Assembly (NCBI GenBank): GCA_903864265.1
Contig: CAIPFN010000080.1
Span: 18,150 to 82,149, forward strand
Direction: 5' to 3'
Length of the DNA stretch: 64,000 bases
From: an uncultured Bacteroidales bacterium
Lineage (GTDB): Bacteria; Bacteroidota; Bacteroidia; Bacteroidales; UBA4417
Shown here: positions 622 through 63,168 of the stretch, piece after piece
How positions within the stretch are numbered: the first letter of the stretch is position 1
How the letters are laid out: each line of letters begins with the position of its first letter
The notes under the pieces: generated by a model
What the model saw: only the letters and a program-made list of their open reading frames with translations
Database searches by the model: none
What the model was told of the DNA's origin: nothing
Translations under genes and position numbers: made by a program

Positions 622-627
622 GGACGA

Positions 628-683
628 TGGAAAATGTCGGATGTGGGATGTCGGATGTGGGATGTCGGATGTGGGATGTGGAA
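628..683 (+). repeat. heptanucleotide tandem array (GGATGTS)n, about 8 units
   Basis: Direct reading gives TGTCGGA TGTGGGA alternating with an exact period of 7 and no indels. Confidence 0.95.
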
Positions 684-688
684 TCTAC

Positions 689-900
689 CCTCTTCTCCTT
701 GTCCCCCTTTCTCCTTGTCCCCTTGTCTCAAATCAATCCAATCAATCTCTTCAATCTCTTCAATCCTATCTCACACTACCCTATCTTCCAATCCATCACT
801 ATCCTCTTCTCCTTGTCCCCTTGTCTCAAATCAATCCCATCAATCTCCTCAATCTCTTCAATCCCATCTCACACTACCCTAACCTCCAATCCATCACTAT
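689..900 (+). repeat. G-poor CT/CA-rich tract made of two tandem units (689-802 and 803-900)
   Basis: Unit 2 repeats unit 1 (cctcttctccttgtcccc...ccaatccatcactat) minus a 16-nt internal duplication. It shares a 24-nt identical string (831-854) with the reverse complement of 45094-45117. Confidence 0.9.
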
Positions 901-932
901 TCACTATTCACTATTCACTTTTCACTATTCAC
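895..932 (+). repeat. heptanucleotide tandem array (CACTATT)n, 5 units
   Basis: Exact period of 7. On the minus strand it reads TGA ATAGTGA..., so the Omp28-like gene stop codon (931-929) is part of the array. Confidence 0.95.
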
Positions 933-1843
933 TGTCTTACAGCAGTTTCCGCTGCCTGCAATACTTCCTTGGTATCAATATCATAAACAAAGGCTACCAC
1001 ATGGCAGTTTTTAGGAACCATGGCATTGGGATTAAAACCGGTAAAATGAACCTGGAAAGTATTGATAACAGGAGCTGAAGAGGTATTGTCTTTCGACAGA
1101 ACCGGCGTGCCCCAGGTGCCATTCACTGCGCCGCGCATCACATGCATATGCACATAATCGAGTATATAGGGCGTGGTGCCTACCGTAGCATCGCCATTGT
1201 ACTGCGCCTGAACAATGCTGTCCTCGGTAAGCACTACCGAGAGATTTAATCCGCGGCCGGTAAGGGATTCGGGGAAACTTGTTTTTACATGCACGCACAA
1301 CTTATCATCGGCAGCACTGTATTCGGTAATCAGCTGTAAATCCATCAGAGGGGCTTCGGTCAACGCGCTCTTAACGCCATCGGCCCAGGCCGAGGGTTTG
1401 GCTACCTGCTTGTTTTCGGGATATCCCTTGCGGCACACCATGCCATTGGGATTACCGAGATTACCTACTTTAAAGAAGTCGTCCCAGGCTGTGCCTTGCG
1501 CGGTACGGAAATCGTAATTCCATACCGGGTCGCCGGCATTCACATTGGCAAACCAGCCTGCATGAACGGCTATCACTACCAATGAGTCTTTGTACTGTTC
1601 TTTCAGGTCGCGGGCAATAAGCCCGGCCCTGGGGCAATTAGGGCAGGTATGCCCGGTATAGTCTTCGAGCAGTACATGTTTAAAATGGGCCGTCACAGCC
1701 GGAAATTCCGGAACGGGGCAGGCCGCGGTATCCACCGGCGCATTGCGGATTACATAGGGGGCATCCACTTTATCGCAGGAAACAAGCAGAAACAAAGCCG
1801 CTGCTGCCAGAAGTAAGGAATTCAGATATTTTGAGTTTGTCAT
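929..1843 (-). CDS. Omp28-related outer-membrane lipoprotein, thioredoxin-like with CPNC motif
   Basis: Lipoprotein signal (LLLAAAALFLLVSC|DK). The segment LLEDYTGHTCPNCPRAG resembles the EEFTG-x-x-C-x-x-CP region of the Omp28-related family. Confidence 0.7.
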   Translation of the reverse strand: MTNSKYLNSLLLAAAALFLLVSCDKVDAPYVIRNAPVDTAACPVPEFPAVTAHFKHVLLEDYTGHTCPNCPRAGLIARDLKEQYKDSLVVIAVHAGWFANVNAGDPVWNYDFRTAQGTAWDDFFKVGNLGNPNGMVCRKGYPENKQVAKPSAWADGVKSALTEAPLMDLQLITEYSAADDKLCVHVKTSFPESLTGRGLNLSVVLTEDSIVQAQYNGDATVGTTPYILDYVHMHVMRGAVNGTWGTPVLSKDNTSSAPVINTFQVHFTGFNPNAMVPKNCHVVAFVYDIDTKEVLQAAETAVRQ

Positions 1844-5686: not shown

Positions 5687-6544
5687 ATGAGCGGGAACCC
5701 CGAGAAACCTTTACGCAAACCCGGCTGGCTGAAAATCAGCCTTCCGAAGGGCGATAACTTCCTTCAGGTGAAAGGCATACTCGAAGTAAAGGGTTTGCAT
5801 ACTATCTGCTCCAGCGGCAAATGCCCCAATATGGGCGAATGCTGGAATGCCGGCACGGCTACCTTTATGATCCTTGGCGACATCTGCACCCGGAGCTGTA
5901 AATTCTGCGCCACCCGTACCGGGAAACCTTTACCTGTGGATGTGGACGAGCCGGGGAAAATTGCCGATTCGGTCAGGCTTCTGAACCTGAAACATGTGGT
6001 TGTCACTTCCGTTGACCGGGATGATTTACCCGATGGAGGAGCAGCCATCTGGGCAGAAACAGTCAGGAAAGTGAAAGAAATGAACCCCGGTATTACCATT
6101 GAAACCCTTGTTCCCGACTTTTGCGGAAATGCGGCTCAGCTTCAGCAGCTTATTGATGCTGCCCCGGATATTATTTCGCATAACCTCGAAACGGTCCGCC
6201 GCCTGACACCCCGGGTACGCAGCGCCGCTCAGTATGATCGCAGCCTGGAAGTGCTGCGGCAAATTGCTGCTTCGGGTCTGAAAGCCAAATCGGGCATCAT
6301 GCTTGGCCTGGGCGAAACCGAAGCCGAAGTGCTGGAAACTATGGATGATTTGCGGAAGGTGAACTGTGGTATTCTTACCATAGGGCAGTACCTGCAACCT
6401 TCGAAAGCACACCTTGAAGTGGCTGAATATATACACCCTGAGCAGTTTGAAAAATACAGGCTAGCCGGGTTGGAGAAAGGATTCAGGCATGTGGAAAGCA
6501 AACCTCTGGTAAGGAGTAGTTATCATGCAGAGAAACATGTTTGA
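5687..6544 (+). CDS. lipA: lipoyl synthase
   Basis: Radical-SAM CxxxCxxC (CTRSCKFC) plus the auxiliary-cluster Cys region (CPNMGEC). The ATG at 5687 gives a normal length of about 285 aa. The track start at 5612 is a GTG extension. Confidence 0.95.
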   Translation: MSGNPEKPLRKPGWLKISLPKGDNFLQVKGILEVKGLHTICSSGKCPNMGECWNAGTATFMILGDICTRSCKFCATRTGKPLPVDVDEPGKIADSVRLLNLKHVVVTSVDRDDLPDGGAAIWAETVRKVKEMNPGITIETLVPDFCGNAAQLQQLIDAAPDIISHNLETVRRLTPRVRSAAQYDRSLEVLRQIAASGLKAKSGIMLGLGETEAEVLETMDDLRKVNCGILTIGQYLQPSKAHLEVAEYIHPEQFEKYRLAGLEKGFRHVESKPLVRSSYHAEKHV

Positions 6545-6590
6545 TGTGGGATGTGGAATGTCGGATGTCGGATGTATGATTTCGGATGTT
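6542..6590 (+). repeat. heptanucleotide array (GGATGTS)n, 7 units
   Basis: TGATGTG GGATGTG GAATGTC GGATGTC GGATGTA TGATTTC GGATGTT. The first three bases are the lipA TGA stop codon. Confidence 0.95.
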
Positions 6591-6707: not shown

Positions 6708-7430
6708 ATGAAAGTAATTTTCAAGGATCTGGGTTTAATGCCCTACCAGCAAGCCTGGGATTACCAGGAGAAACTTCTCGGTGAGATCATTCACCAGAAA
6801 CTGGAATTTCAGAAACGTCCTTCCATTCAACAGGAATTCACTGATAACTACCTGCTGTTTGTTGAGCATCCGCATGTTTTCACCCTGGGAAAAAGCGGCT
6901 CGGAGGCGAACCTGCTGGCGAACCTGGTTCAGCTACAGGCTAAAAATGCCGAATTTATCACCACTAACCGGGGAGGTGATATCACCTATCACGGTCCGGG
7001 ACAAATTGTGGGTTACCCCATACTGAACCTTGATTATTTTGCGAAAGGTATACGCGACTATATTGATAAACTGGAAGAAGCCATTATCCTTTGCCTGAAT
7101 CATTATGGAATTGAAGGTTCCCGGTTCCCGGGCGCCACGGGGGTATGGCTCGACACCGCGGTGGCCGCGAAAACGCGGAAAATCTGTGCCATGGGGGTTC
7201 GGGTAAGCCGCGGAGTAAGCATGCATGGCTTTGCTTTTAATGTTAACACCGATTTGTCGTACTTTAGCCTCATCAATCCCTGTGGCTTCAACGATAAAAA
7301 GGTAACTTCGCTGCAGGCTGAAACAGGCCGTGAAATGGATACAGAAGAAGTTAAAGCGATATTGAAAGAAAAAATCTCGGAGGTTTTCGGAATGGAATTA
7401 GACTTATCCACCCCAAAAACACACCATTAA
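6708..7430 (+). CDS. lipB: lipoyl(octanoyl) transferase
   Basis: Motifs HPHVFTLGKSG, RGGDITYHGPGQ and KICAMGVRV (catalytic Cys/Lys region) are present. Confidence 0.95.
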   Translation: MKVIFKDLGLMPYQQAWDYQEKLLGEIIHQKLEFQKRPSIQQEFTDNYLLFVEHPHVFTLGKSGSEANLLANLVQLQAKNAEFITTNRGGDITYHGPGQIVGYPILNLDYFAKGIRDYIDKLEEAIILCLNHYGIEGSRFPGATGVWLDTAVAAKTRKICAMGVRVSRGVSMHGFAFNVNTDLSYFSLINPCGFNDKKVTSLQAETGREMDTEEVKAILKEKISEVFGMELDLSTPKTHH

Positions 7431-7442
7431 TCTTTATTCCTA

Positions 7443-7515
7443 CATCACACATCCGAAATCCGAAATCCGAAATCCGACATCCGACATCCGACATCCGACA
7501 TCCCACATCCGACAT
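7443..7515 (-). repeat. heptanucleotide array (GGATGTS / GGATTTC)n in inverted orientation, 10 units
   Basis: The plus strand reads CATCACA CATCCGA (AATCCGA)x3 (CATCCGA)x3 CATCCCA CATCCGA with an exact period of 7. It starts 13 nt after the lipB stop and ends 18 nt before the LOG start. Confidence 0.95.
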
Positions 7516-8138: not shown

Positions 8139-8282
8139 TGGCTGATGGGCCAGAGGTTTTAATCAGGCATTTCCGGCACTTTTTCATTTCGAAAAAACCT
8201 TGCCTACCCTGTAATTTCGTAATTTTAAGTCTATCAGATTTCAGCTGAATTCTGTTTCCCCCAACTAAAATAATTTGAAATT

Positions 8283-8611
8283 ATGGAAGCCGTTAAATTA
8301 TATGATAACAAGAAAATACGTTCGGTCTGGGATGCTGAACAGGAGAAATGGTTTTTCTCGATCGTTGATATAATTGAAGCACTAACCGATAGCAATAACC
8401 CACAGGTATATTGGCGGGTTCTTAAAAAACGGCTTCTTGCCGAAGGAAACGAAACCGTTACAAATTGTAACGCTTTGAAAATGCAAGCACCTGATGGGAA
8501 TATGCGTTGAACCTACACAGACCGCCCCCGAAAATACTGGAGCGATTTAAAATCAAAATTAAAAAAGAAGACAGCGAGTTGTCCGAAAAAATCGGACAAC
8601 TGAAAATGTAA
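8283..8611 (+). pseudogene. decayed Bro-N-like (phage antirepressor N-terminal type) gene remnant
   Basis: The 75-aa ORF (KKIRSVWDAEQEKWFFSIVDIIEAL...) ends at an in-frame TGA (8508-8510). The same frame continues with TYTDRPRKYWSDLKSKLKK. A shift at the A6 run (8561-8566) is then needed to read EDSELSEKIGQLKM up to the TAA at 8609-8611. The expected C-terminal part is absent. Confidence 0.6.
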
Positions 8612-8720
8612 ACAGAAGCACAAACAAAAAAACATCGTCGGTCCGCTGAATGCAAAAACATTGAAAGAAAGTAAAAAGGTAAAAAGACTCAAATAATCTT
8701 TGGAATTAAATTAAAAATAC

Positions 8721-9971: not shown

Positions 9972-10116
9972 TGTTCAATAATATAAAGCTAAGGTACAGG
10001 TTTTAAACTGGTTTTTCTTAAAAATCAGGATTCACTAATTTGTTATTTCGGATCCATCTTGTCAATCAGCAGAATATCTGCAAAAAGAAATTGAGGTTTC
10101 ATAAGTAACCTCTTAA

Positions 10117-10158
10117 CATCCCACATCTGACATCCCACATCTGACATCCCACATCCTA
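10117..10158 (-). repeat. heptanucleotide array (GGATGTG/GGATGTC-type), 6 units
   Basis: The plus strand reads CATCCCA CATCTGA x3. The last unit, CATCCTA, contains the TAG stop (10158-10156) of the dCMP deaminase gene. Confidence 0.95.
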
Positions 10159-24333: not shown

Positions 24334-24369
24334 GTGTAGAATATTGTGGTGTGTTTAGTTGCTTTTTTA

Positions 24370-24398
24370 GTTCCGGGTTCCGGAGTTCCGGGTTCCGG
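24370..24398 (-). repeat. heptanucleotide array (CCGGAAC)n, 4 units, in the sufB-sufC spacer
   Basis: The plus strand reads GTTCCGG GTTCCGG A GTTCCGG GTTCCGG. It is the reverse complement of the CCGGAAC module at 44682-44709. Confidence 0.9.
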
Positions 24399-24440
24399 CA
24401 ATTGCAGTCATGCCCTTTAAGGCTAATTTCTTATTTAGTA

Positions 24441-24520
24441 TCCAACATCCGACATCCAACATCCAACATCGCAGATCAAACTTCGCAGATCCGACATCCG
24501 ACATCGCAGATCCGACATCA
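24441..24520 (-). repeat. heptanucleotide array (GGATGTY / GATCTGC variants), 11 units, directly after the sufB stop
   Basis: Minus strand: TAA TGA TGTCGGA TCTGCGA TGTCGGA TGTCGGA TCTGCGA AGTTTGA TCTGCGA TGTTGGA TGTTGGA TGTCGGA TGTTGGA. The period is exactly 7 throughout. Confidence 0.95.
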
Positions 24521-43752: not shown

Positions 43753-44559
43753 TTATTTCCAGGCTTTCACTACCAGCCCGGTTCCGGTTTTATGGGTCAG
43801 GGTGGCATCGAAATAATTCAATACCAGACAAAGTGGGAAGGTGATGATGTAATAAAAAGGCAGAATAATAAAAAGGAGTTTCGTTTTACCCAGTGCCAGT
43901 ATAGGGTATTTCATCGAGAGGCGCCAGCTTAATTGCCCGGGTTTACCATACTGGTAGCGGGCTTCGGTGCGGCTGAAGCCGGCAAGCCGGAGTTTCTCCT
44001 GTATTTCGCTGATGTTGTACCCGTCGCGCACATGTTCGTCGATAAACGATTCTTCCTCGTGTTCGTGAACATCGCTGCCGCCCTGGTCCGAAGGGGTCGA
44101 AATCAGCACCATGCCGCCGGGTTGAAGGGAAGCATAAAAATTACGGAATACGGCAACGTCCTCCAGTATATGTTCCATCACATCCACCGAGAGGATGAGG
44201 TTATAAGCCGAAGCATCCGTAAAGGCCGTCAGGTCGGCATTGGCAAAGCTTACATTTTTCCTGCCTATGCGGCTGAAAAAGGCGTTGCAGTCAGCAATCT
44301 GTTCGTCTTTTACATCCACGCCCCTGATTTTCCAATCCGGATGTTTGGATGACATATAGAAATCGTATTGTCCGAAACCCGAGCCTGCATCCAGGATGGA
44401 AGCGTTTTTGGGTGCCGACAGGGCCCATTGTTTCACTTCGCGCCTCACATGCCACGAACGCAGCAGGAGTAAATCGAGCAGGCGGTAAAACACTTTTCTT
44501 AAAAACGGAGTGCTGTTGAAAACACTGCCCAGCGAACGTTTGATAGGATCGTACTGCAT
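43753..44559 (-). CDS. class I SAM-dependent methyltransferase with C-terminal membrane segment
   Basis: SAM motif I ILDAGSGFGQY and a hydrophobic C-terminal region. It lies 18 nt upstream of pafA. Confidence 0.75.
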   Translation of the reverse strand: MQYDPIKRSLGSVFNSTPFLRKVFYRLLDLLLLRSWHVRREVKQWALSAPKNASILDAGSGFGQYDFYMSSKHPDWKIRGVDVKDEQIADCNAFFSRIGRKNVSFANADLTAFTDASAYNLILSVDVMEHILEDVAVFRNFYASLQPGGMVLISTPSDQGGSDVHEHEEESFIDEHVRDGYNISEIQEKLRLAGFSRTEARYQYGKPGQLSWRLSMKYPILALGKTKLLFIILPFYYIITFPLCLVLNYFDATLTHKTGTGLVVKAWK

Positions 44560-44611: not shown

Positions 44612-44709
44612 TGTGGGATGTGGGATGTTTGATGTGGGATGTGGGAACCCGGCACCTGGCACTTGGAACCTGGCACTTGGTACCCGGAACCCGGAACCCG
44701 GAACCCGGA
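44612..44709 (+). repeat. 14 contiguous heptamers: (TGTGGGA)x5 fused in phase to (ACCYGGN)x9 ending in (ACCCGGA)x4
   Basis: Direct count from 44612 shows the period-7 register is unbroken across the switch of motif family at 44646/44647. Confidence 0.95.
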
Positions 44710-44723
44710 ACATCTTCTTCTTT

Positions 44724-45062
44724 CTAGCCTTTGAGCAGGTTGTCGATATTTTCGATATAATCGAGGGAATCGTCAATAAAAAAATCGAGCTCGGGGATGG
44801 ATCGCACCTGGTTGTGGATACGGTTGCCCAGTTTAAGCCGGATCTCTTTCCGGTGTTCTTTAATCAGGGCCAGTAACTCCGGCTTAGGGGTTTTCCCGAA
44901 AAGGCTGATATAAACTTTAGCCAGGAAAAGGTCGGGGGAGATGTGTACCTTGGTAACCGTAATCATATTGCCCGTGAATACATCGCGGCCCATGGCCTGG
45001 AATATTTCGCCCATATCCTTCTGGAGCAGTCGTTCTATTTTTTGCTGACGTGTTGTTTGCAT
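44724..45062 (-). CDS. rbfA: ribosome-binding factor A
   Basis: MQTTRQQKIERLLQKDMGEIF...ITVTKVHISPDLFLAKVYISLF is a canonical RbfA N-terminus. The track ORF start at 45137 runs into the repeat tract and is rejected. Confidence 0.9.
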   Translation of the reverse strand: MQTTRQQKIERLLQKDMGEIFQAMGRDVFTGNMITVTKVHISPDLFLAKVYISLFGKTPKPELLALIKEHRKEIRLKLGNRIHNQVRSIPELDFFIDDSLDYIENIDNLLKG

Positions 45063-45090
45063 GGCGCAAAGGTAAGGATTTATTGGAATA

Positions 45091-45200
45091 GGTGATTGAG
45101 GAGATTGATGGGATTGAGGAGATTGAGGGGGCGACAAGGGGACAAGGGGAGATTGATGGGATTGATGCGATTGAGGAGATTGATGGAGACAAGGTGAGGA
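45091..45200 (-). repeat. C-poor (plus strand) GATTGAKGR / GGGACAAGG low-complexity tract, homologous to 689-900 in reverse orientation
   Basis: The reverse complement contains ccccttgtccccttgtc and tcaatcccatcaatctcctcaatc. The latter is a 24-nt identity with 831-854. Confidence 0.9.
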
Positions 45201-45272
45201 TTGATGGATTTGAAGGGAGATTGCAATGTATTATACGGCATGACGGTTATCGATTTCATCGTCTGATTATTC

Positions 45273-45321
45273 CACATCCCACATCATACATCCCACATCA
45301 TACATCCGACATCCTAGATCT
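45273..45321 (-). repeat. heptanucleotide array (GGATGTG/GGATGTA-type), 6-7 units, right after the GT2 stop codon
   Basis: Minus strand: TAG GAGATC TAGGATG TCGGATG TATGATG TGGGATG TATGATG TGGGATG TGG. Confidence 0.95.
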
Positions 45322-45322
45322 C

Positions 45323-46147
45323 CTAAAGTCCTGACTCAATATCCCGGCAATATTCCCTCATGGTTTCCAGGCTCCATTTATCCTCGTTCGAGATAATGTT
45401 ATCCTTGTCGGCAAAGGGAGCACGGGTTGATTTGGAGGTTAAGCGGATGTAATGATGTATGAACACTCCCAGTGCCATATGAACAGGCTTGATGTCATTA
45501 TGTTCGATATTTCTTTTCTTCGAGCGTATGTACAAATCAAAGTCAGCGCCTTGGATGCGCTCATCCCAGAGGCCTATTTTGGCCAGGGCCTCTCGCCGCA
45601 TCATCACGGTATTCCCCACGAAACCTTCCTTCACGGCAAGCCCGAATTTTTCGAAGCGTTTGTTGGCGAAGCGTTCCCAGTTCCCGTACATCAGCCGGTG
45701 CATGAGCTTTAGGTTAAAGGTGCTGAAGCCAAATACGGCGAGAGGATTTTTTACCTTCAGCCATCGGCGCTTTATAGCTTTGGAGCTCACGGCATCTTCC
45801 AGCATTTCGATGCCCACGGGGGTGATTACATCCAGGCCAGCGGCATCGGCGGCATCGAGCATGCGTTTGTCCCAGTCGGGTGAAACGATAATATCGTTAT
45901 TGATAAAAACGAAAGTATCATATTTTGCTTTGGCGATTCCCTGGTTCTGGCATACAGGGTAGGAATAGTTTAGCTCATTTTCAATCACCACAGCGCCCAC
46001 CGACTTGAAAAATTCCCGGCTTCCATCCGTGCTCTTATTGTCAATAATGATAAGTTCGAAAGGATGAAACGTATATTTCCGGAGGGATTGCCAGAATATC
46101 CGGTTCATCGGCAATCCGTTATGCACTGCGGTTATGATGCTGATCAT
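45323..46147 (-). CDS. glycosyltransferase family 2
   Basis: ISIITAVHNG ... ELIIIDNKSTDGS ... FINNDI (DxD-like) is typical of GT-A fold GT2 enzymes. Confidence 0.85.
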   Translation of the reverse strand: MISIITAVHNGLPMNRIFWQSLRKYTFHPFELIIIDNKSTDGSREFFKSVGAVVIENELNYSYPVCQNQGIAKAKYDTFVFINNDIIVSPDWDKRMLDAADAAGLDVITPVGIEMLEDAVSSKAIKRRWLKVKNPLAVFGFSTFNLKLMHRLMYGNWERFANKRFEKFGLAVKEGFVGNTVMMRREALAKIGLWDERIQGADFDLYIRSKKRNIEHNDIKPVHMALGVFIHHYIRLTSKSTRAPFADKDNIISNEDKWSLETMREYCRDIESGL

Positions 46148-59541: not shown

Positions 59542-62064
59542 TTATAAAATATATCTGGAGGGTGGCTCAGCGGGTCTTTTGGTCATATGATTCATCACCA
59601 TACGAATCTCCCCGTAACTCACATCCTCTCCCAAAACAGCCTTGGCTTCAGTCAGCGAGGTGTTCTCTGTCCTGACAAAATAGGCCCTGATCATTCCGAT
59701 CTTCTCCAATGGGATTAGCTTTTCAATATCCAGCTCACCGCTGGCCACAAAGCCGGCGAGATGGCCCTCTATGGTTGATGGTGCATAGGCTCTCTGTCGG
59801 GCAATTTCGGAAATGGTTTTTCCTTCCAAAAACAGCTCAAGACTTAATCGCTGCGATTCGCCTTTGGGTTTTTGTTTCGAAACAGGTTTCTCAACCGGTA
59901 ATTCAGCATCCAGTTTGCTTAAATGAGTCAGCTGCAGATATTCCCGTATCATTCCTATAATCTCAACCCCGTATTTCTGAACTTTTTTCTTCCCGAAACC
60001 CTTGATCTCTTTCAACTCAGGGATGGTAACCGGCAGCAGCTCCGCCAGGTCATACATGGTTTTTTGCGGCAGCACCATGTATATTGGAAGATCTTCCTCC
60101 TCAGCCATAGCGTCGCGCCACTCCCTGATCTGCTGTAACAAGGGTGAATCCGATTTGCTGCCCGTCGGACCAGGGATTTTTAATTTTGATTCCGGCTTAA
60201 GCTGTATTTTTTCGATTCCGGCTTTGGCTTTCGCATCCAGGTAAATTTTAACCGTAAACCCGGCAATACATGCTTTAAAACAGGCCGATTTTATGAACGC
60301 TTCCTGGTAAAGTATTTCAAAACTATCCTTCAGCAGCATCCGGATGGCCTTGTTGTCGGTTTCTATATCTGTATTTTGCAGAACACGGCAAATATGCTCA
60401 TCGGTTTTTCCGGCAAAATAGGTACAGGCTTTTTTAATACGTTCCTGCAAAGCTTCATACCCTTCAATCATAGGCTGCGTCAGCAGAAACTGTCCGATCT
60501 GTGGCCTAAACTTATCGGCCACGCCTATCAGTTCCGTATTCATGGCATTATACATGCCGTTAAAGGCTTCGGCCAGAGCAGGCCGCAACACATGGGCATT
60601 TTCCTTAATCAGTTTCTGGCAATGGTAAAAGCGACGCAGAATCAGCGAGAAATCCAGCAACTCGGCCAGCAGGGTCTGCTGATAGGCAATGCGCGAAGCC
60701 AAAAGCTCTTTTTCACCCGGGGGATTCATTTCGGCTTCGTCCGAAAACCCTTTTACACTCACGTCGCTTTTAATACAGGTTTGGGAAATGGGCGAACTCA
60801 ATACCATCCCCTCAAAAGTCTTGCAACGACTCAGCGCCACATATACCTGCCCGTGGGCAAAAGCCGCATTGGCATCGATGATCGCCTTCTCAAAAGTTAG
60901 TCCCTGACTTTTGTGAATGGTAATGGCCCAGGCTAATTTTAAAGGATATTGTATGAATTTACCGATCACCGTTTCGGTGATTGCTTTGGTTTCCTCGTTA
61001 ATGGCGTATTTGTTGTTTTCCCAGGCCAGGGGCTCCACCGGAATAACAGCGTAATCACCATCGCATTTTACATAAATTATATCATCCTCTATACGGGTAA
61101 TTGTTCCTATTTTGCCGTTATAAAACAGCTTTTCGCGCGAAATGTCGTTCTTCACAAACATCACCTGTGCGCCTTTTTTCAGTACCAGGTCGAAATCGGT
61201 GGGGTAAGCGTATTCGGGAAATTCGCCTTCCACCTCCGCCTTAAAATGAAAAGCATGTCCCTTCAGTTGGTTCAGTTTGCTTTCGTTGATGGCATTCGAC
61301 TGGTAGTTGTGCGTGGTGAGGGTAATATAGCCTTCGTCAGTGCCGGGATTAAATCCGGGAATATACCGCTGGTTCAGGTCATCGAGCGACTGCCGGTCAA
61401 TTTTGTTGTCACGCACCTTGTTCAACAGGCTGATAAATACATCATCACTCTGACGGTAGATATGTTTCAGCTCAATGGTGGTGAAGTCGGTTTTTTGCAG
61501 GGCCCGGCTGCCGAAAAAGAAAATGGTGTCGTAATAGGGCCGGAGCATTTCCCATTCGTCGTCTTTGGCCACGGGGGCCAGTTGTTGCAGGTCGCCAATC
61601 ATAAGCAGCTGCACGCCTCCGAAAGGCTTGTAGCGGTCCCTGAATCTGCGCAATACCTCATCAATGGCATCCAGTAAATCGGCCCGCACCATGCTGATTT
61701 CATCAATCACCAGCAGGTCAAGACTTTTCATGATGTTTATCTTCTCGCGGCTGAAACGCTGTGCGCGGTCGAAGGCATTTTTCTGTATTTGAACGCTATC
61801 GCTGTTTGGCCGGGCATCCTGCTCCGGGATATGTGGCCCGAATGCCATCTGGAAAAACGAGTGTATGGTCACCCCACCGGCATTAATGGCCGCCACCCCG
61901 GTTGGAGCAACTACAATCATACGCTTGGGTGAAATGGTTTTCAGGTTGCGTAAAAAGGTAGTCTTGCCGGTTCCCGCTTTCCCGGTCAGGAACAGGTTGG
62001 TATTGGTTTGCTCCACAAAGTCAAACGCCAGTTGAAGTTGCAGATTCGGGATTTCCTGGGTCAT
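59542..62064 (-). CDS. PIF1/RecD-like SF1 helicase with C-terminal HRDC-like and HTH domains
   Basis: Walker A GKAGTGKTT, motif Ia VAPTGVAA, Walker B LVIDEISMV, GDLQQLAPV and TIHKSQGLTF. These are followed by an HRDC-like segment (LLQQIREWRD...VLPQKTMYDL...IKGFGKKKVQKYG) and an HTH-like tail. Confidence 0.85.
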   Translation of the reverse strand: MTQEIPNLQLQLAFDFVEQTNTNLFLTGKAGTGKTTFLRNLKTISPKRMIVVAPTGVAAINAGGVTIHSFFQMAFGPHIPEQDARPNSDSVQIQKNAFDRAQRFSREKINIMKSLDLLVIDEISMVRADLLDAIDEVLRRFRDRYKPFGGVQLLMIGDLQQLAPVAKDDEWEMLRPYYDTIFFFGSRALQKTDFTTIELKHIYRQSDDVFISLLNKVRDNKIDRQSLDDLNQRYIPGFNPGTDEGYITLTTHNYQSNAINESKLNQLKGHAFHFKAEVEGEFPEYAYPTDFDLVLKKGAQVMFVKNDISREKLFYNGKIGTITRIEDDIIYVKCDGDYAVIPVEPLAWENNKYAINEETKAITETVIGKFIQYPLKLAWAITIHKSQGLTFEKAIIDANAAFAHGQVYVALSRCKTFEGMVLSSPISQTCIKSDVSVKGFSDEAEMNPPGEKELLASRIAYQQTLLAELLDFSLILRRFYHCQKLIKENAHVLRPALAEAFNGMYNAMNTELIGVADKFRPQIGQFLLTQPMIEGYEALQERIKKACTYFAGKTDEHICRVLQNTDIETDNKAIRMLLKDSFEILYQEAFIKSACFKACIAGFTVKIYLDAKAKAGIEKIQLKPESKLKIPGPTGSKSDSPLLQQIREWRDAMAEEEDLPIYMVLPQKTMYDLAELLPVTIPELKEIKGFGKKKVQKYGVEIIGMIREYLQLTHLSKLDAELPVEKPVSKQKPKGESQRLSLELFLEGKTISEIARQRAYAPSTIEGHLAGFVASGELDIEKLIPLEKIGMIRAYFVRTENTSLTEAKAVLGEDVSYGEIRMVMNHMTKRPAEPPSRYIL

Positions 62065-62228: not shown

Positions 62229-63168
62229 AATGAGGCAGAATTGGAGACCAGGGTTTTGGTAGGAGTGTGTCTGCACACCTGAGTGCCGGAAAACTCTGAA
62301 CTCAAGCACCATTTAGTTGCACGAAGGGTGTCTGACACACGTATCACGGCATCAGGCAGCCTGCTGTGTGTCTGTACACCTGAGTGCCGGGAAGGCCTGA
62401 ATTCAAGCGCCATTTAGTTGCACGAAGGGTGTCTGACACACGTATCACGGCATCAGGCAGCCTGCTGTGTGTCTGCACACCTGAGTGCCGGAAAACTCTG
62501 AACTCAAGCACCATTTAGTTGCACGAAGGGTGTCTGACACACGGATCACAACAGCATAAGTCAGACCCCAGTGTGTCTGCACACCTGAGTGCCGGGAAAG
62601 CCTGAACTCAAGCACCATTTAGTTGCACGAAGGGTGTCTGACACACGTATCACGGCTTCAGGCAGACATGCTGTGTGTCTGTACACCTGCGTGCGGGGAA
62701 AGCCTGAATTCAAGCACCATTTAGTTGCACGAAGGGTGTCTGACACACGAATCACGGCTTCAGGCAGACATGCTGTGTGTCTGTACACCTGAGTGTTGGG
62801 AAAGATTGAGTTCAAGCACCCTTTAGTTGCACGAAGGGTGTCTGACACACGGATCACGGCATAAAGCAGACCCCAGTGTGTCTGTACACCTGAGTGCGGG
62901 GAAAGCCTGAATTCAAGCACCGTTTAGTTGCACGAAGGGTGTCTGACACACGGATCACGACATAAGGCAGACTTTGGAGTGTTTGTACACCTGAGTGCGG
63001 GGAAAGTCTGAATTCAAGCACCATTTAGTTGCACGAAGGGTGTCTGACACACGGATCACGACATAAGGCAGACCCCAGTGTGCCTGTACACCTGAGTGCC
63101 GGAAAAGTCTGAACTCAAGCACCGTTTAGTTGCACGAAGGGTGTCTGACACACGAATCCGTGTGCACC
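62229..63168. repeat. tandem array of 9 units of 101-104 bp, each with two GTGTCTG-N-ACAC palindromic cores
   Basis: Unit starts are at 62265, 62366, 62467, 62571, 62673, 62775, 62876, 62977 and 63078. About 75 nt of each unit is conserved (GTGTGTCTGYACACCTGAGTGCSGG...CAAGCACCATTTAGTTGCACGAAGGGTGTCTGACACACG), followed by a ~25 nt more variable tail. Confidence 0.95.

Follow-up and report, generated by a model that had tools for sequence, protein, structure and literature searches.

Tandem arrays with a seven-nucleotide unit are the most over-represented long simple sequence repeats (SSRs) of prokaryotes, an excess for which polymerase slippage has been made responsible (Mrázek 2007, summarised in PMC4679880 and PMC4692102). 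The G-rich heptamers GGGAATC of Xanthomonas and GGGGAYT of Nostoc are about 90% intergenic and occur on either strand (Rehm 2015, PMC4692102). Their arrays place the G-rich strand on the coding strand 0-50 bp from a stop codon or over it, vary in length among close relatives and frequently form inverted (convergent) pairs (PMC4692102). TAACTGA heptamers are found in Beggiatoaceae, Cyanobacteria and some Bacteroidetes (MacGregor 2015, PMC4679880), and the cyanobacterial STRR heptamers are likewise intergenic; in Gramella and Aequorivita a single spacer can hold several heptamer types, and close relatives have short spacers free of arrays (PMC4679880). Here we describe heptamer arrays on both sides of rbfA in DNA of an uncultured Bacteroidales bacterium (assembly GCA_903864265.1, contig CAIPFN010000080.1, positions 18,150 to 82,149). 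This whole stretch of 64,000 nt is referred to as the window, and coordinates are positions within it.

We conclude that the repeats flanking rbfA are very likely slippage-born, hypervariable arrays of the heptanucleotide long-SSR class, and that the inverted bracket they form around the gene is not a conserved or co-evolved unit. Evidence for this conclusion comes, among other things, from the unit series of the arrays themselves and from the orthologous spacers of a sister species, in which array position, period and strand composition are kept and the complementarity between the two flanks is not.

Heptamer arrays at the rbfA locus and in related spacers

The arrays and associated elements at the locus are as follows:

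44612..44646, plus strand: five GGATGTG-family heptamers (TGTGGGA twice, TGTTTGA, TGTGGGA twice); the rbfA sense strand reads (CCCACAT)5, with C 51% and G 0%
44647..44709, plus strand: nine ACCYGGN heptamers that follow the preceding block directly and keep its phase; GTTCCGG-type on the sense strand, with 8 units in the sister species
44708..44726, minus strand: rbfA stop codon and the purine-rich stretch TAGAAAGAAGAAGATG
44724..45062, minus strand: rbfA, 112 aa (PF02033, E 1e-25); homologues all start MQ..
45075..45232, minus strand: C-rich, G-poor sense-strand block of tandem 9-nt (CAATCTCCT-type) and 8-nt (CCCTTGTC) units, from Tandem Repeats Finder (TRF); C 41%, G 4%
45273..45321, minus strand: sense-strand GGATGTS-family heptamers, seven units beginning 6 nt past the stop codon of a glycosyltransferase family 2 (GT2) gene; 11 units in the sister species ortholog

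Cutting the sequence every 7 nt resolves the left array (44612-44709) into 14 contiguous, in-phase heptamers, five of TGTGGGA type and nine ACCYGGN. In order they read TGTGGGA, TGTGGGA, TGTTTGA, TGTGGGA, TGTGGGA, ACCCGGC, ACCTGGC, ACTTGGA, ACCTGGC, ACTTGGT and four copies of ACCCGGA, with GG(A) fixed at unit positions 5-7 throughout. The right array (45273-45321) has seven units, CACATCC, CACATCA, TACATCC, CACATCA, TACATCC, GACATCC and TAGATCT, and is the first part of a 260-nt composite in which the heptamers are followed by a spacer and then by C-rich 9- and 8-nt arrays at 45090-45223. An earlier note on this DNA had described a left array that changes motif without a break of phase and right-hand CACATCC-type units that are its reverse complement, with a 15-nt perfect inverted match. 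Both descriptions hold, the former on reading the sequence and checking the 7-nt register, the latter on the sequence. The 15-nt string, TGATGTGGGATGTGG, has direct copies at 44630 and 6542, and its reverse complement lies at 45272. Of the 98 nt that make up the left array, no more than 35 have an inverted partner.

To place these arrays in context we read about 100 related rbfA loci, identified by their RbfA homologues and all from uncultured Bacteroidales. In relatives at the 80-94% level the spacer between rbfA and the downstream methyltransferase gene is hypervariable, ranging from about 35-50 nt without any array to more than 300 nt (locus L016). The short, array-free form is found in L001-3, L140, L142/144, L150/151, L154/156 and L160. 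Where arrays are present they start at the rbfA stop codon (TAGAAGACGGAAGTC...), with G-rich heptamers on the sense strand (GGAAGAC, GGAAGTC, GGGAGTC or GGATGTC) followed by a C-rich CGCCCYT/CCTTGTC block. Single in-phase arrays mix such heptamers, for example GGAAGTC with GGATGTC, in L141 and L145, and L149 carries GGAAGCC. By comparison with these loci, the purine-rich stretch at 44708..44726 is probably the remnant of a GGAAGAC-type array of the kind that starts at the rbfA stop in relatives.

The most informative comparison is with a sister species (P0121; RbfA 94% identical in protein and 82.6% in DNA) that is represented by four samples, L215-218. Upstream of rbfA it has 11 GGATKTS units counted from the GT2 stop and then about 24 TCAATCYCN nonamers, where the window has 7 heptamers and about 12 nonamers. 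Within the nonamer array L218 is shorter than L215-217 by exactly 45 nt (5x9), with rbfA DNA 100% identical. Downstream, the GTTCCGG block is retained (8 units) and the distal block is (CTCCCTA)5 as against (CATCCCA)5 in the window. Array position, period and strand composition are thus kept, but the complementarity of the bracket is not: the longest exact inverted match between the rbfA flanks is 6 nt in the sister species and 15 nt in the window, and the z-score of the flank duplex is -2.8 as against -7.8. The bracket of arrays that lipB has elsewhere in the window is likewise not conserved. In an 82% relative (L219) that keeps the lipA-lipB-LOG synteny, the spacers contain unrelated repeats with a longest inverted match of 7 nt, and the predicted duplex of the lipB pair, about -76 to -79.4 kcal/mol in the window, amounts to -25 kcal/mol. 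The lipA-lipB spacer of this relative (L219, 2328-2500) has purine-rich CACGGAGAA-type repeats from the stop codon, with inverted CTCCGTG copies about 100 nt downstream, an inverted arrangement inside one spacer that is built from a different unit family.

Register, period 7 and slippage

Every unit downstream of rbfA has TCC, or GGA when read on the opposite strand, at one constant phase, and the two motif types are linked by hybrid units. As read on the sense strand, the series is TTCCGGG (four copies) ... TGCCGGG TTCCCAC ATCCCAC in the window and GTTCCGG ... GTTCCGC ATCCCTA CTCCCTA in the sister species. The two motif "families" of the left array are best read as diverged parts of one xxTCCxx array, a reading with which the mixed arrays and the intermediates such as GGAAGCC in relatives agree. 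If a single array diverged by point mutation and whole-unit amplification, its register would be kept automatically and no reader of a 7-nt lattice would be needed. From the preserved register the earlier note had argued that the period itself is maintained, as expected for slippage in 7-nt steps, and this part of its argument gains support from the 5x9 polymorphism, from unit numbers that vary between species and from the dominance of period 7. Among 102 anchored loci (434 kb) that were picked independently of arrays, 51 arrays have period 7, compared with 6 of period 8, 8 of period 9 and at most one of any other period. The tests of whole-unit length change are, within a species, the 45-nt difference in the nonamer array of the sister species and, between species, the heptamer counts (7 and 11).

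We envision a scenario in which arrays occupy the DNA that is under least constraint, between the stop codon that ends an upstream gene and the promoter or start region of the gene that follows. Their lengthening and shortening in whole units, which we regard as established, would proceed by slipped-strand mispairing or unequal exchange. Amplification of point-mutated units in blocks would then give rise to higher-order periods of 14 and 21 nt and to a graded change from one motif to another, as the unit series in part demonstrate and in part suggest; TRF finds perfect 14-nt higher-order repeats at three window loci. Arrays at separate loci of one genome would also exchange sequence, to judge from shared irregular strings such as GATGTGGGATGTGGAAT, which is present at 668 and 6543 and reverse-complemented at 45269, and a 20-nt string that takes in the lipA stop. 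The favoured unit differs by genome (GGATGTS in the window and the sister species, GGAAGWC in their cousins), and this would be because of such exchange. The GGATGTS family is scattered on both strands, so that neighbouring spacers occasionally hold it in opposite orientation, as around rbfA and lipB. Any phenotypic effect would more likely come from strand composition, that is, from an unstructured G-rich and then C-rich, G-poor RNA past the stop codon, than from pairing between arrays.

Several observations weigh against an account based on slippage alone. It leaves unexplained the recurrence of GGATGTN in many phyla, the consistent G-rich strand at stop codons, and the survival of array architecture and strand composition across 17% divergence in rbfA DNA. 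In addition, both of the two adjacent array pairs in the window are inverted with the same polarity (P≈0.011, post hoc). The stop-codon polarity, the recurring unit and the surviving composition could reflect selection on composition.

The inverted bracket and rival explanations

The earlier note had drawn a parallel between rbfA and lipB, and the likeness is real: lipB (6708-7430, plus strand) lies between GGATGTS units at 6542-6589 and their complement at 7441-7515. These two flanks are part of a wider set. Matches to GGATGTNGGATGT with at most one mismatch number 34 in the window, where 0.30 are expected and none of 100 shuffles reaches 34. GGATGTS arrays occur in seven spacers, at 634, 6542, 7441, 10116, 24437, 44612 and 45273 (strands + + - - - + -), alongside CCGGAAC, TCACTAT, CCTTGTCC and TCAATCTCY units, and the only array periods within the 64 kb are 7 and 9 (8 by TRF). 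The arrays outside the rbfA locus are:

634..933, plus strand: second composite, GGATGTS heptamers at 634-683 and then 250 nt of C-rich arrays (CCTTGTCC, TCAATCTCT, TCACTAT), in the same module order as the rbfA composite
6542..6589, plus strand: GGATGTS array over the lipA stop codon, left flank of lipB, with a 20-nt string in common with 44626-44645
7441..7515, minus strand: GGATGTS-family array between lipB and a LOG-family gene, reading CACATCC/GAAATCC/GACATCC on the plus strand
10116..10156, minus strand: GGATGTS array over a deaminase stop codon, followed by a terminator-like hairpin (10112-10093, minus strand)
24369..24519, minus strand: GGATGTY array 1 nt past the sufB stop, a 40-nt spacer and a CCGGAAC array, within the sufBCDS operon

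The 20-nt string shared by 6536-6557 and 44626-44645 is ATGTTTGATGTGGGATGTGG, and at 6542 it holds the last lipA codons and the TGA stop. Either the C-terminus and stop of lipA come from array sequence, or this piece was copied between loci.

The mirror-image arrays around rbfA and lipB are most likely incidental, because the arrangement is not kept in the nearest relatives. We distributed 7 arrays at random over the 47 spacers of the window. Two or more adjacent array-bearing pairs arise with P≈0.21 and two such pairs that are both inverted with P 0.06; the value for both being "+ then -" is 0.011, with a polarity picked after seeing the data. Among the 21 pairs of window arrays the longest shared strings range from 7 to 26 nt. 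The rbfA pair shares 15 nt, whereas the arrays at 44612 and 45273 share 20 and 18 nt, respectively, with the array at 6542; the lipB pair shares 18 nt, and 26 nt are common to the arrays at 634 and 7441. When reference genomes were scanned for four GGATGTN units, at least 118 stretches came up. Among the matches listed (L017-L134), arrays of at least 4 units occur in Verrucomicrobiota (most often), Planctomycetota, Bacteroidota, Acidobacteriota, Chloroflexota, Patescibacteria and one Methanoregulaceae archaeon. Same-family neighbours 250-1500 nt apart among these matches are inverted in 6 cases and direct in 3, mostly with a polarity opposite to that of the window, and inverted pairs are not significantly over-represented at this gene-bracketing distance. 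At less than 100 nt, 13 neighbours are inverted, in the manner of hairpins and as in Xanthomonas, and 3 are direct. One of the 6 inverted pairs, on the Patescibacteria contig JAHJJO010000063.1 (L022), was discarded as a palindromic assembly artefact; this sequence is a perfect palindrome about position ~3467, with the same 1252-aa open reading frame (ORF) on each arm, and imitates nested inverted arrays. The proposal of the earlier note that the bracket at rbfA is meaningful, through DNA inversion or an RNA duplex, therefore does not find support, given the loss of complementarity in the sister species and of the lipB bracket in the 82% relative, the better matches of the flanks to other arrays and the unremarkable adjacency.

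Two of the rival explanations turn on the bracket and also on where transcription of rbfA begins, for which the immediate neighbourhood is relevant:

43753..44559, minus strand: gene for an S-adenosylmethionine (SAM)-dependent methyltransferase, downstream neighbour of rbfA
45067..45074, minus strand: TACCTTTG, a TAnnTTTG match 5 nt ahead of the rbfA ATG, kept in all relatives
45323..46147, minus strand: GT2 gene (PF00535), upstream neighbour of rbfA

A TAYCTTTG box lies about 5 nt 5' of the rbfA ATG in every relative. It matches TAnnTTTG, the published -7 promoter consensus of Bacteroidetes. Because this box is conserved 5 nt before the ATG, it suggests that rbfA has its own putative promoter inside the bracket, downstream of the upstream arrays.

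One possibility is that the arrays act as RNA: in a read-through transcript from GT2 into rbfA they would pair into a double-stranded stem enclosing rbfA, and RNase III would free or stabilise a monocistronic rbfA mRNA, with a like arrangement at lipB. The earlier note had called for cofolding of the two arrays, and a strong duplex is indeed predicted at rbfA (-56.8 kcal/mol, compared with -25.8±4.4 for shuffles). A stem of about 50 bp appears in the minimum free energy fold of the 776-nt RNA from the GT2 stop to the methyltransferase start, the spacers lack competing local structure (z +0.96 and +0.28), and small single genes within inverted GGATGTN arrays occur elsewhere, including two PF05635 genes (L028 and L068). 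The strength of the duplex follows from the reverse complementarity, however, and therefore provides no independent evidence. The sister species keeps both arrays yet loses the pairing, complementarity at lipB is absent from the 82% relative, the flanking arrays have better matches in other arrays of the window than in each other, the polarity of inverted pairs in the reference matches is mixed and they are in no significant excess at this distance, and the box before the ATG suggests that transcription of rbfA starts mainly inside the bracket. We consider such an RNA role very unlikely. The same inverted repeats (15-18 nt perfect, about 35-50 nt imperfect, around both rbfA and lipB) could in principle support recombination that flips rbfA or lipB as a switch, and invertible DNA segments are well known in Bacteroidales. 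But rbfA has one orientation relative to the methyltransferase gene in all of the ~100 related loci, the repeats are not conserved in relatives, and with a putative promoter within the segment inversion would leave expression unswitched. Neither a recombinase nor a transposase was found among the ~34 neighbouring ORFs scanned. With orientation conserved and no recombinase in these ORFs, we reject DNA inversion, which we find hardly credible.

Other explanations concern the repeat unit, the composite or its composition. A protein, a G-quadruplex (G4) or a nicking or restriction site (GGATG, GAAGAC or GAGTC) might recognise or generate the heptamer of each genome. Every genome does have its own favoured unit and GGATGTN recurs in many phyla among the matches listed, a Pif1-family helicase gene lies within the window, (GGGATGT)n has, formally, the capacity to form G4, and G4 formation by related heptamers is described in vitro (PMC4692102). 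Most units, such as GGATGTC and GGAAGAC, lack G3 tracts, though: the left array has 4 GGG tracts, with a central loop of 11 nt, there are 2 in the right array, and GGATGTC and GGAAGAC units have 0. As most units lack such tracts, G-quadruplex formation is unlikely to be a property that unifies the arrays. Unrelated unit types (CCGGAAC, TCACTAT and the 8- and 9-mers) behave alike, and no candidate factor was identified. We find a sequence-specific lattice highly improbable, and the suggestion of the earlier note that a ligand reads a 7-nt lattice is not borne out, as common array descent together with hybrid and intermediate units explains the register. Nor do we give more than slight credence to a dispersed mobile composite resembling a MITE (one of the miniature transposable elements with inverted repeats). 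Speaking for it, the module order GGATGTS, CCTTGTC, TCAATCYC is common to 634-933 and 45330-45063, and GGATGTS is followed by CCGGAAC at two loci. When the composites at 625-935 (plus strand) and 45330-45063 (minus strand) are aligned, though, only the repeat units match and the spacers are unrelated; a mobile element whose core is conserved is therefore not what the two represent. The aligned composites have no terminal inverted repeats or target duplications, the ~34 ORFs scanned include no transposase, and the arrays are orthologous in position between species. A further alternative is that composition is what selection acts on: a G-rich block at the stop codon and then a C-rich, G-poor unstructured block would act on the transcript, for example through Rho loading (rut-like), and end the unit before the next promoter, with repeats serving as a means by which such tracts evolve easily. 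Rut sites combine a C-rich, G-poor composition with a lack of structure. The sense-strand C-blocks after GT2 and after ORF 28-450 are extreme, as are the 35 nt with G 0% after rbfA, and by local folding the modules are no more structured than shuffles (the two z-scores above and +2.3 for L016). Block order and composition are retained while sequence turns over, all arrays of the intra-operon spacers lipA-lipB and sufB-sufC are G-rich or balanced when read on the sense strand, and arrays of Xanthomonas and Nostoc are reported to share this strand polarity (PMC4692102). Set against this, only about 7 spacers are involved, so that the contrast between operons and boundaries is anecdotal, many close relatives are array-free at the same spacer, Rho dependence is unreadable from sequence, and GGATGTS itself has no sense-strand bias (4 G-rich, 2 C-rich). 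We regard this as a tentative and rather unlikely explanation. A combined proposal, in which a stop-anchored G-rich and then C-rich, G-poor module is selected for composition and maintained by slippage in several phyla, with additional RNase III-type stems round small genes (rbfA, lipB, genes for 23S rRNA intervening-sequence (IVS) proteins) in some genomes, we judge unlikely.

The polarity that bears on these last two proposals can be set out in full. All seven GGATGTS arrays lie in spacers that hold the 3' end of a gene, and none lies in a divergent spacer. In four cases (lipA, sufB, deaminase, GT2) the upstream gene's sense strand is the G-rich one, and the array starts 0-6 nt from the stop or overlaps it; in two, after lipB and after rbfA, the sense strand is C-rich. 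The arrays of relatives too begin at the stop with the G-rich strand on the sense strand (TAGAAGACGG...). Where both blocks occur the G-rich one comes first and a long C-rich, G-poor one second, the latter measuring 158 nt after GT2 (C 41%, G 4%) and 250 nt after ORF 28-450 (C 40%, G 2%). Local folding of the spacers, in the same three cases, did not find G- and C-blocks pairing into terminators, and a scan of the rbfA flanks for sigma-70 promoters and terminators gave nothing relevant, with no intrinsic terminators in the spacers. This polarity, a regularity seen in Bacteroidales as well as in Xanthomonas and Nostoc, may be a termination or boundary signal.

Associated features and likeness to known repeat systems

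Several features of the window and of the fetched loci deserve record. A 137-aa ORF with a TTG start (MSPPQSPQSHQSPQSP..., 44724-45137, minus strand) is RbfA lengthened at its N-terminus through the stop-free repeat arrays, and gene callers and ORF finders make like extensions in P0024 (186 aa), P0053 and P0060. We reject such N-terminal extensions as spurious, the homologues all beginning MQ... In L215-217 a 132-aa antisense "gene" has been called over the arrays. All four PF05635 (23S rRNA IVS protein) genes that tblastn identified in the fetched loci directly abut heptamer arrays:

L028, 7267-7789: PF05635-gene locus beside arrays
L068, 1689-2247: PF05635-gene locus beside arrays
L057, 7713-7998: PF05635-gene locus beside arrays
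L016, 24-427: PF05635-gene locus beside arrays

Two of these, in L028 and L068 (Verrucomicrobiota and Chloroflexota), are bracketed by inverted GGATGTN-type arrays; a literature search found no published association between IVS proteins and heptamer arrays.

At the far end of the window a 101-bp unit is repeated in tandem 8.8 times (62265-63158), each unit having a hairpin of about 75 nt closed by GTGTGTCTGYACACC and GGGTGTCTGACACAC (RNA z -2.95). A lone related copy lies at 556-625, just ahead of the heptamer array at 634; the unit was found in none of 220 other loci fetched and has no Rfam match. An Rfam scan of the whole window at the gathering threshold gave no matches. Adjoining the 101-bp array is the gene for the Pif1-family helicase, with HRDC and HTH_40 domains (59542-62064, minus strand). 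Pif1 helicases unwind G-rich structures, and this one may be relevant to a genome in which G-rich repeats abound. A gap of 582 nt without a long ORF (8139-8720) separates the LOG-family gene from an AAA gene; at this position the 82% relative, L219, carries a Bro-N gene of 276 aa. A 75-aa ORF at about 8286-8513, at the Bro-N position, has no Pfam match, and may be what is left of a decayed gene.

For the biology of rbfA itself these findings are of little consequence, as the bracket most likely arose by coincidence in one lineage, among repeats of a known class. The arrays matter in practice in that metagenome assemblies break at them and spurious ORFs arise from them, the lengthened RbfA calls being an example. 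The spacer between rbfA and the methyltransferase gene, in turn, offers a clean natural series of heptamer array birth, in-phase motif change and whole-unit length change.

Among known systems, the RNase III stems of rRNAs and of 23S rRNA intervening sequences resemble the rbfA flanks in having long-range complementarity round a functional unit (-56.8 kcal/mol and ~50 bp predicted here). The likeness is one of geometry only: pairing at rbfA and lipB is neither conserved nor co-varying, and co-transcription is doubtful. The TAACTGA systems share intergenic heptamer arrays in which contigs often break (PMC4679880). They differ from the window arrays in unit sequence, in lying mostly just upstream of start codons and in being short in Beggiatoaceae (PMC4679880), and, unlike them, the window arrays suggest no translational role. 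The arrays of Xanthomonas and Nostoc are closer. The G-rich strand lies at or over the stop codon, within the 0-50 bp described by Rehm 2015, in the lipA, sufB, deaminase and GT2 arrays. Inverted pairs of Xanthomonas and Nostoc are near each other in a single spacer, whereas those of the window are separated by 560-850 bp that include a gene; most window units are without the G3 tracts of canonical quadruplexes, and separate C-rich arrays of 7-9-nt units come after them. As far as the cited summaries of Mrázek, Guo & Shah 2007 go, their long SSRs and the window arrays have in common head-to-tail 7-nt units, an excess of that period, intergenic location, a patchy distribution across lineages and a slippage step of ~7 nt. 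What differs from that description is the units (GGATGTS, GGAACCC) and the direct documentation, at a single orthologous spacer, of whole-unit polymorphism together with turnover of the motif. Tandem 7-nt units above chance, an excess of period 7 and whole-unit length polymorphism are all present, and the rbfA-flanking arrays are members of the heptanucleotide long-SSR class, in a new lineage (uncultured Bacteroidales) and with a new unit family.

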